Virus record (IMG/VR): IMGVR_UViG_2529292910_000001
Reading direction: 5' to 3' (one strand)
DNA length: 9,828 nucleotides
DNA from: a virus
Lineage: Monodnaviria > Loebvirae > Hofneiviricota > Faserviricetes > Tubulavirales > Inoviridae
Made by a program: the position numbers and the translations under genes. This document shows, piece after piece, positions 8,242 through 8,870 of the stretch (position 1 is the first letter of the stretch; every line of letters begins with the position of its first letter). The notes under the pieces are model-generated. The model was given only the letters and a program-made list of their open reading frames with translations. It was not told the DNA's origin and made no database searches.

Positions 8242-8423
8242 CACCGATTTTTTTACAGATAAAACCTTCTCTTTAACAGAAGATAAAAACCTTTAAAAAT
8301 CATAATTACCTCGCAGATAAATTAACGGTTTTTAATATCATGGAGATGCAAAACCCGACAAAGAAAGACAGTACGGGTAATGAAGCCCCCACAGCAAAAG
8401 CCTCGGGATTAACCGCAGGCGTA

Positions 8424-8870
8424 TCAGAGAAATCCACACAGACAACAGAATAAACCTGTTGTTATCCAGACCCTGAATTCTGAGAAGTTGCGCTCATGAT
8501 TCCCACCCCGTTTAATGAACAGAATCCGAACATAAAGAAACAGGGTATAACCACGTCCTGGATAAATCAGATGAGACCAGACAAAAAGTATCAGCCGATT
8601 TAAAAAACGGAATAATAAAAAATCTTCCTCGTGTCCAAATTTTTCCAAAAAATGGAAAGCCTCAGAATAAGAAGGGAAAGATAAGGCGCATCCCGGATCT
8701 AAATGCCACAAAAAACCAACTGCTTTAAATTCCGGGAATTCCTCATAATCACAAAGAACAGGAGAAGGATAAAAGGACTCAGCCAGAACAAACCAACCGC
8801 CAAAAAGGAAAGTTTCGGTTATATTCAGCTTACGACGTAACACAGAAATATCAGGCGATTGCATAACCAA
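8424..8870 (-). CDS. Hypothetical protein (148 aa), aromatic-rich, in the gVII/gIX position
   Basis: Strong SD (AGGGGGAGG) 7 nt before the ATG, packed 13 nt after the upstream ORF, and no competing plus-strand ORF. Unusual composition (many F/W/C), which is partly expected from the T-rich coding strand, so the reality of the product is uncertain. Confidence 0.4.

Follow-up and report, generated by a model that had tools for sequence, protein, structure and literature searches.

The pVII and pIX proteins of filamentous phage f1 each form one helix, of 33 and 32 residues respectively, and carry no signal sequence; their positive C-termini are directed towards the DNA, and the two proteins start assembly at the packaging signal (PMC10175506). 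Two small genes in the Escherichia coli prophage described here resemble the pVII and pIX genes of Ff phages and IKe in several respects. Their products also appear to be small and hydrophobic, to form one helix each, and to lack a signal peptide, and they are likewise acidic on the N-terminal side and basic at the C-terminus. The genes, two in each genome, are likewise clustered with gVIII and coupled to their neighbors. Unlike in Ff and IKe, one partner belongs to a family of 57–126 aa proteins bearing a disordered N-terminal extension and the motif SVVC(A/V)DF, while the other is encoded downstream of gVIII, after a hairpin, and not upstream. The small proteins of the two systems display no detectable sequence or profile similarity to each other.

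With respect to integration, the element is like the enterobacterial inoviruses that use XerCD to enter dif (YpfPhi/CUS-1, UPphi901, and CTXphi), being a prophage at a dif-like site beside hipA/ydeT. Module exchange has been described for UPphi and YpfPhi (PMC7307601, PMC4266046). The gII/gV module of the present element has 85–87% DNA identity to prophages in five complete E. coli genomes, where it stands beside a different structural gene set, an arrangement that recalls the module exchange of UPphi (PMC7307601).

The stretch of DNA that was analyzed, called the window throughout, is 9,828 nt long and contains a filamentous-phage (inovirus) prophage at the E. coli dif site, with its genes on the minus strand (Table 1). 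Nine filamentous-phage genes were recognized on this strand, and the prophage carries a divergent HTH repressor. Sequence from the E. coli ydeT/ydeS region (99.9% identity) begins exactly at a dif-like 28-mer (3122..3149), and the relatives have the same fimbrial genes on one side and hipA on the other. The 28-mer at the host junction and the position of the relatives thus identify a dif-integrated E. coli inovirus prophage and indicate integration by XerCD at dif. The comparison DNA included 12 recovered relatives (L002–L013), the near-identical contig L001 (IMGVR_UViG_2529292909_000007), and additionally L014, L015, and L022–L024. In L001, which extends beyond window position 9828, an IS1 end consisting of the InsA ORF and a terminal inverted repeat (L001 1..490) abuts gII near its midpoint. 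The contig terminates inside IS1, and the replication gene gII of the prophage is disrupted.

Table 1. Features of the prophage and of the region around gVIII (window coordinates).
Feature	Position	Strand	Remarks
dif-like 28-mer AGTGCGTATAAGGTATATTATGTTAAAT	3122..3149	-	3 mismatches vs E. coli dif
gIV secretin	4705..3425	-	
gI/Zot	5832..4708	-	
gVI	6137..5850	-	DUF2523
gIII	7852..6158	-	
27-aa hydrophobic gene MIQSFFDVVIFIFGIVCGFAAVLGFSR	7883..7966	-	unannotated, between gVIII hairpin and gIII
GC-rich hairpin plus T run, terminator-like	7986..8006	-	just after gVIII; equivalent in all relatives
gVIII major coat gene, as listed	8244..8014	-	phrog_2186 virion structural protein, E=3.5e-21
gVIII, true extent	8014..8303	-	start ATG 8303..8301, GAGG Shine-Dalgarno (SD), 2 nt after small-gene stop
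T5 homopolymer (GGTTTTTAT)	8285..8289	-	T6 in L001, L002, L008, L013
Small membrane-protein gene, 63 codons + stop	8306..8497	-	ATG 8497..8495, TAA 8308..8306
Codon 21 of 63-codon gene, GTG (Val)	8435..8437	-	GCG (Ala) in L008, Ala in all close relatives, Val in distant members
Premature in-frame TAA, codon 12 of 63-codon gene	8464..8462	-	Gln (CAA in L008) or one His in relatives
148-aa ORF	8870..8424	-	146 aa from ATG 8864; mostly in ~357-bp insert (8505..8861)
98-aa ORF	9179..8883	-	between gV and ~357-bp insert
gV-like ssDNA-binding protein	9533..9186	-	PF02303
gII, 3' end only	right edge of window	-	

The interval directly upstream of gVIII had been flagged, from its letters alone, as possibly encoding two tiny analogues of pVII and pIX: a 28- or 43-aa protein begun at GTG 8392 or GTG 8437, and a 16-aa protein begun at ATG 8303 (the original prediction). 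The interpretation that appears probable overall is a different one, in which a broken small gene and the start of gVIII account for the interval and two small proteins, one of them encoded elsewhere, are candidate cap proteins. The gene models on which it builds, those of the small gene and of the gVIII start, are close to certain.

Translation of the proposed frame from either GTG to the TAA at 8308..8306 does give 43 or 28 aa as predicted, but the product was misjudged. The 43-aa frame (8437..8306, minus strand) forms the 3' two-thirds of a gene of 63 codons, broken in the window by a nonsense codon, whose ATG is preceded by the SD-like GGGGTGGG. The gene is intact in all 12 recovered relatives. 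Pairwise dN/dS, calculated over the ungapped C-terminal 45 codons, is 0.08–0.26 in the small-gene frame and mostly ∼1–5 in the two shifted frames; low values in this frame only are the mark of a real gene under purifying selection. A protein search retrieved E. coli homologues of 61–63 aa that are 94–96% identical across 51 queried residues, with E values down to 8.8e-24 (P0001–P0004), and the wider set of matches (P0001–P0007; E=8.8e-24 to 6.9e-15) is similar across the conserved C-terminal ∼50 residues. The homologue in L007 has 89 aa. A profile search of 1.84 billion representatives returned only seven clusters, of 57–126 aa. Members of the family have the layout SVVC(A/V)DF, ∼12 residues, a hydrophobic segment, and a basic tail, behind N-terminal extensions that reach ∼95 residues and contain no signal peptide. 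RefSeq already lists one such protein as hypothetical (WP_158709073.1, from E. coli 2012C-4221). The window frame shares with the family of this protein its sequence and its place upstream of gVIII, and differs in that the window copy is broken by TAA at codon 12. Weak matches link the family to phrog_22498 and phrog_969, both PHROGs of unknown function; for the 63-aa protein, Pfam returned nothing, the PDB no sequence relative, and PHROGs no functional label.

Wherever it occurs, the small gene directly precedes gVIII, whether the element is integrated at dif or lies beside an IS110-family transposase. The stop of the small gene is separated from the ATG of gVIII by 0–11 nt in the window and in 12 independent relatives. 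The replication modules found beside the pair are of three kinds (G2P_X_C, Rep_trans, or Phage_GPA), and adjacency maintained across all three implies that the small gene travels with the structural module. To this extent the original prediction is borne out: immediately upstream of gVIII there is indeed a small hydrophobic gene that the long-ORF track missed, and the two are start-stop coupled.

The same comparison moves the start of gVIII. The GAGG and the ATG at 8303..8301, 2 nt after the small-gene stop, are present as described, as is the 16-aa ORF MIFKGFYLLLKRRFYL (8303..8253), whose end (8255..8253) precedes GTG 8244 by 8 nt and ATG 8241 by 11 nt. In L001, L002, L007, L008, and L013, the frame from this ATG runs continuously into the mature coat protein, and in the window it is broken. 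A continuous gVIII likewise opens at the equivalent coupled ATG in L003–L006, L014, L015, and L022–L024, so that the coupled ATG serves in every relative, with the SD placed within the small gene or immediately beyond its end. One missing T (T5 in place of T6) splits the gVIII of the window into the 16-aa ORF and a 76-aa ORF; the 16-aa ORF thus reads the first eight codons of gVIII and then continues out of frame. On sequence grounds, what had been taken for a gene is the frameshifted 5' end of gVIII.

Intact gVIII encodes a 96-aa precursor with a basic leader of 38 aa, which in L001, where the run is T6, reads MIFKGFLSSVKEKVLSVKKSVMSFFVAPLVLASGSALA/AGPTTTP... (96 aa). Precursors in the other relatives have 74–101 aa and start 0–11 nt after the small-gene stop. 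The leader contains an in-frame 21-nt duplication in L002 and synonymous changes in L007, and divergent relatives retain a basic M-x-F-(K/D/N)...K-S opening, all of which argues that it is coding. A short form starting at 8244 would be devoid of a positive n-region.

The small gene overlaps a longer reading frame. The 148-aa ORF lies largely within an insert of ∼357 bp (8505..8861, from alignment to L002) that is present in L008–L013 and absent from L002, L003–L006, and L007, and through its final 25 codons it shares sequence with the 5' end of the 63-codon gene. Depending on a T6/T7 run near 8623, the product has 146 aa, extending 74 nt into the small gene, or 117 aa, in which case it stops at 8512..8510, just before the small-gene ribosome-binding site; both forms are found in independent assemblies. 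Between the window and L008, seven of the eight changes in the 146-aa frame are non-synonymous. Within the overlap the same pair differs by four changes. In the small frame two are synonymous and the others create the nonsense codon and A21V; in the 148-aa frame only one is synonymous. This pattern indicates that the overlapping tail of the 148-aa ORF is a run-on that places no constraint on the small gene. The original prediction had proposed comparing the conservation of the two frames, and named stops or frameshifts in the small frame of relatives that keep the 148-aa frame as evidence against it. The opposite was found: every relative keeps the small frame, the better conserved of the two, whereas L002, L003–L006, and L007 lack the 148-aa ORF.

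A second small gene lies on the other side of gVIII. A hydrophobic ORF of 25–29 aa occupies the space between gVIII and gIII in every relative examined for this interval, the most distant among them (L002–L008, L013, L014, L015, and L022–L024). The 27-aa gene of the window differs from its equivalents by six synonymous changes in L002 and nine in L008, with no non-synonymous change in either. Its product ends in Arg and is closer in size to pVII and pIX than the ORFs first proposed. The gene tables of the relatives list nothing between gVIII and gIII, nor does RefSeq in E. coli 2012C-4221.

Comparison with relatives is needed at this locus because hydrophobic small ORFs come cheaply on a T-rich strand, where size and hydrophobicity weigh little. 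T makes up 33% of the phage coding strand. Of its 38 ORFs of 16–70 aa, 10 contain a strongly hydrophobic 19-aa stretch, where shuffled sequences lead one to expect 2.5, and eight of these are out of frame within large genes. On the T-rich coding strand of inoviruses such ORFs are common by chance, and only relatives can sort out the real ones.

A blastn search of the region against deposited phages found no match, and the structural module from gVIII to gIV likewise had no DNA match. Megablast of complete E. coli genomes (5,426) gave none; more sensitive blastn against E. coli genomes matched two only, each over 117 nt within the small gene. A scan for gI in one genome per species found nothing, and IMG/VR contributed a single contig, near-identical to the window. 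Searched by tblastn against phage records, the 63-aa protein gave only chance-level matches to mycobacteriophages (E of 2 or more), and an Rfam scan of 7700–9000 returned nothing credible. The gI protein is 36–37% identical to those of uncultured gut inoviruses.

The copy of the small gene in the window is damaged. The TAA at codon 12 falls 11 codons after the ATG and 27 nt upstream of GTG 8437, and interrupts a frame that is intact in all relatives other than L001; support for the nonsense codon comes from this one near-identical contig, possibly of the same strain. The 63-codon gene is inactivated here by the nonsense codon. Readthrough or recoding of the TAA was also considered, and nothing was found in its support. 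Between the window and L001 there are no substitutions and just four single-T indels, all in T5–T7 runs (8715, 8623, 8290, and 4447). Each assembly is aberrant at some T runs, L001 for example breaking gIV at 4447, which suggests homopolymer sequencing errors in both and makes the gVIII frameshift at least as likely a miscall as a mutation. Because differences confined to four T homopolymers are the signature of miscalling, the TAA and the T5 might both be sequencing or assembly errors, with both genes intact in the real genome. This is improbable, as the TAA is a substitution and not a change of homopolymer length, and both it and A21V are common to the two assemblies. The IS1 in gII of L001, moreover, is in keeping with a prophage in decay, where a real nonsense mutation would be tolerated; in a prophage already defective, a genuine knockout of the small gene is plausible. 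Far less credible still is the original prediction of a 28- or 43-aa protein and a 16-aa protein as direct analogues of pVII and pIX. Its frames, start codons, and GAGG motifs are all present in the sequence, and re-initiation at the window-specific GTG 8437 may follow the nonsense codon, but this GTG is a local Ala-to-Val substitution at a codon that specifies Ala (GCG) in all close relatives, and the YSVVC residues upstream of it are near-invariant across the family. The GAGG preceding GTG 8392 belongs to conserved Pro-Glu-Ala codons, and the codon at 8392 is Q, T, or A in several distant members; as an internal start for a pVII-sized peptide it was rejected, not being a start codon in these members. 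The 16-aa ORF, for its part, is absent from L001, L002, L007, L008, and L013, where the ATG opens gVIII.

With the broken small gene and the coupled gVIII start as the preferred gene models, there remains the function of the two small proteins. The minimal relatives L003–L006 carry homologues of gII, gV, gVIII, gIII, gVI, gI, and gIV, and exactly two unassigned small genes, of 61 and 29 aa. Ff phages possess exactly two structural genes more than that set, those of pVII and pIX. In the AF2 model of the 63-aa protein, residues 1–30 are disordered and residues 31–62 form one helix (pLDDT 81–94). The predicted helix, at 32 residues, is as long as a whole pVII or pIX, and is joined to a 30-residue disordered N-terminus in a family of 57–126 aa. 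The protein carries a net charge of -3 on the N-terminal side of the hydrophobic core and of +2 on the C-terminal side, the acidic N side and basic C-terminus matching the pattern of M13 and IKe pVII, and its gene adjoins gVIII with start-stop coupling. Count, position, helix length, and charge layout together make the two small proteins the best candidates for the role of pVII and pIX. By analogy they are plausible functional counterparts of the Ff proteins, a judgement that stands at or just short of an even call. The analogy drawn in the original prediction survives in position and coupling, with no homology detected: hhalign of the 63-aa and 27-aa family alignments against M13 plus IKe pVII and pIX gave probabilities of 0.4–6.6%, and the better match in size is the gene at 7966..7883. 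The 63-aa protein was also considered as a paralogue of gVIII and rejected (hhalign probability 4.8%).

Alternatively, the 63-aa protein may be conserved without being part of a cap, acting instead as an inner-membrane accessory in assembly or regulation (a partner of pI/pXI or a chaperone of procoat insertion) or as a host-directed protein, for example in superinfection exclusion. Such a role is unlikely, though considerably less so than the sequencing-error explanation. The lack of homology to pVII and pIX is compatible with it, as are the Cys-containing SVVC(A/V)DF motif, conserved here and without counterpart in pVII or pIX, and an N-terminal region that varies in length up to ∼95 residues without a signal peptide. 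Extensions of this length without a signal peptide also mean that an N-out topology and a place in the virion are not assured. An accessory or host-directed role is less easily reconciled with a gene that is strictly tied to gVIII and its structural module whatever the accompanying replication and integration modules. It would also leave the minimal genomes without a second cap protein, and the 63-aa protein has its charges arranged as in a coat protein.

Under the preferred explanation, the flagged interval spans the junction of two real genes, the 63-codon gene and gVIII. The first would encode a small inner-membrane protein, with an acidic, disordered N-terminal region of ∼30 residues ending in the near-invariant SVVC(A/V)DF, followed by one hydrophobic helix of ∼32 residues and a short basic C-terminal tail. 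Translation of intact gVIII from ATG 8303 would yield a procoat of 96 aa whose basic leader is long, and translational coupling is probable given that the gVIII GAGG lies inside the first gene and that two bases separate stop and start. The 63-aa and 27-aa proteins would be the two small proteins of the virion cap or of assembly initiation in this lineage, corresponding to Ff pVII and pIX. Both are envisaged to insert into the inner membrane without a signal, N-out/C-in, and to form a helix bundle at the leading tip with basic C-termini towards the packaged DNA, where they may nucleate pVIII polymerization at the pI/pIV export machine.

A broader generalization can be offered only as a doubtful one, namely that the structural module found on both dif-integrating and IS110-associated enterobacterial inoviruses builds its leading-tip cap from the products of two genes that have no sequence relation to pVII/pIX. 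This cap would be composed of a 25–30-aa helix protein and a larger partner whose disordered N-terminal extension, of ∼25–95 residues, projects from the tip. If so, the projecting extension would be a natural equivalent of N-terminal display on pVII/pIX. If the two are tip proteins, they would constitute a second, sequence-unrelated example of a pVII/pIX cap and would aid the search for caps in the many inoviruses in which none has been recognized. What results is a corrected annotation together with a reasonable hypothesis of function in a lineage that has been little studied; the system is not of a new kind. The corrections concern the boundaries of the small gene, the start of gVIII, and the 25–30-aa gene missed by pipelines; this candidate cap gene after the gVIII terminator has escaped annotation in every genome examined. 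The window copy itself belongs to a defective prophage and is unfit as a reference for either the small gene or gVIII.

Several further observations concern the surrounding modules. In L019, L007, L014, and L022, the small gene, gVIII, the tiny ORF, and gIII to gIV occur with Rep_trans or Phage_GPA, beside an IS110-family transposase. The presence of the structural module on two integration backgrounds suggests that modules are shuffled and that a second route of integration exists. The 98-aa ORF (8883..9179) is an accessory gene, with homologues of 94–95 aa in L002 and L008–L013, none in L003–L006, and no family match. The linker of gIII (6540..6772, minus strand) comprises ∼50 Gly-Thr dipeptide repeats, and both the number of repeats and the length of the protein vary across relatives (470–577 aa).
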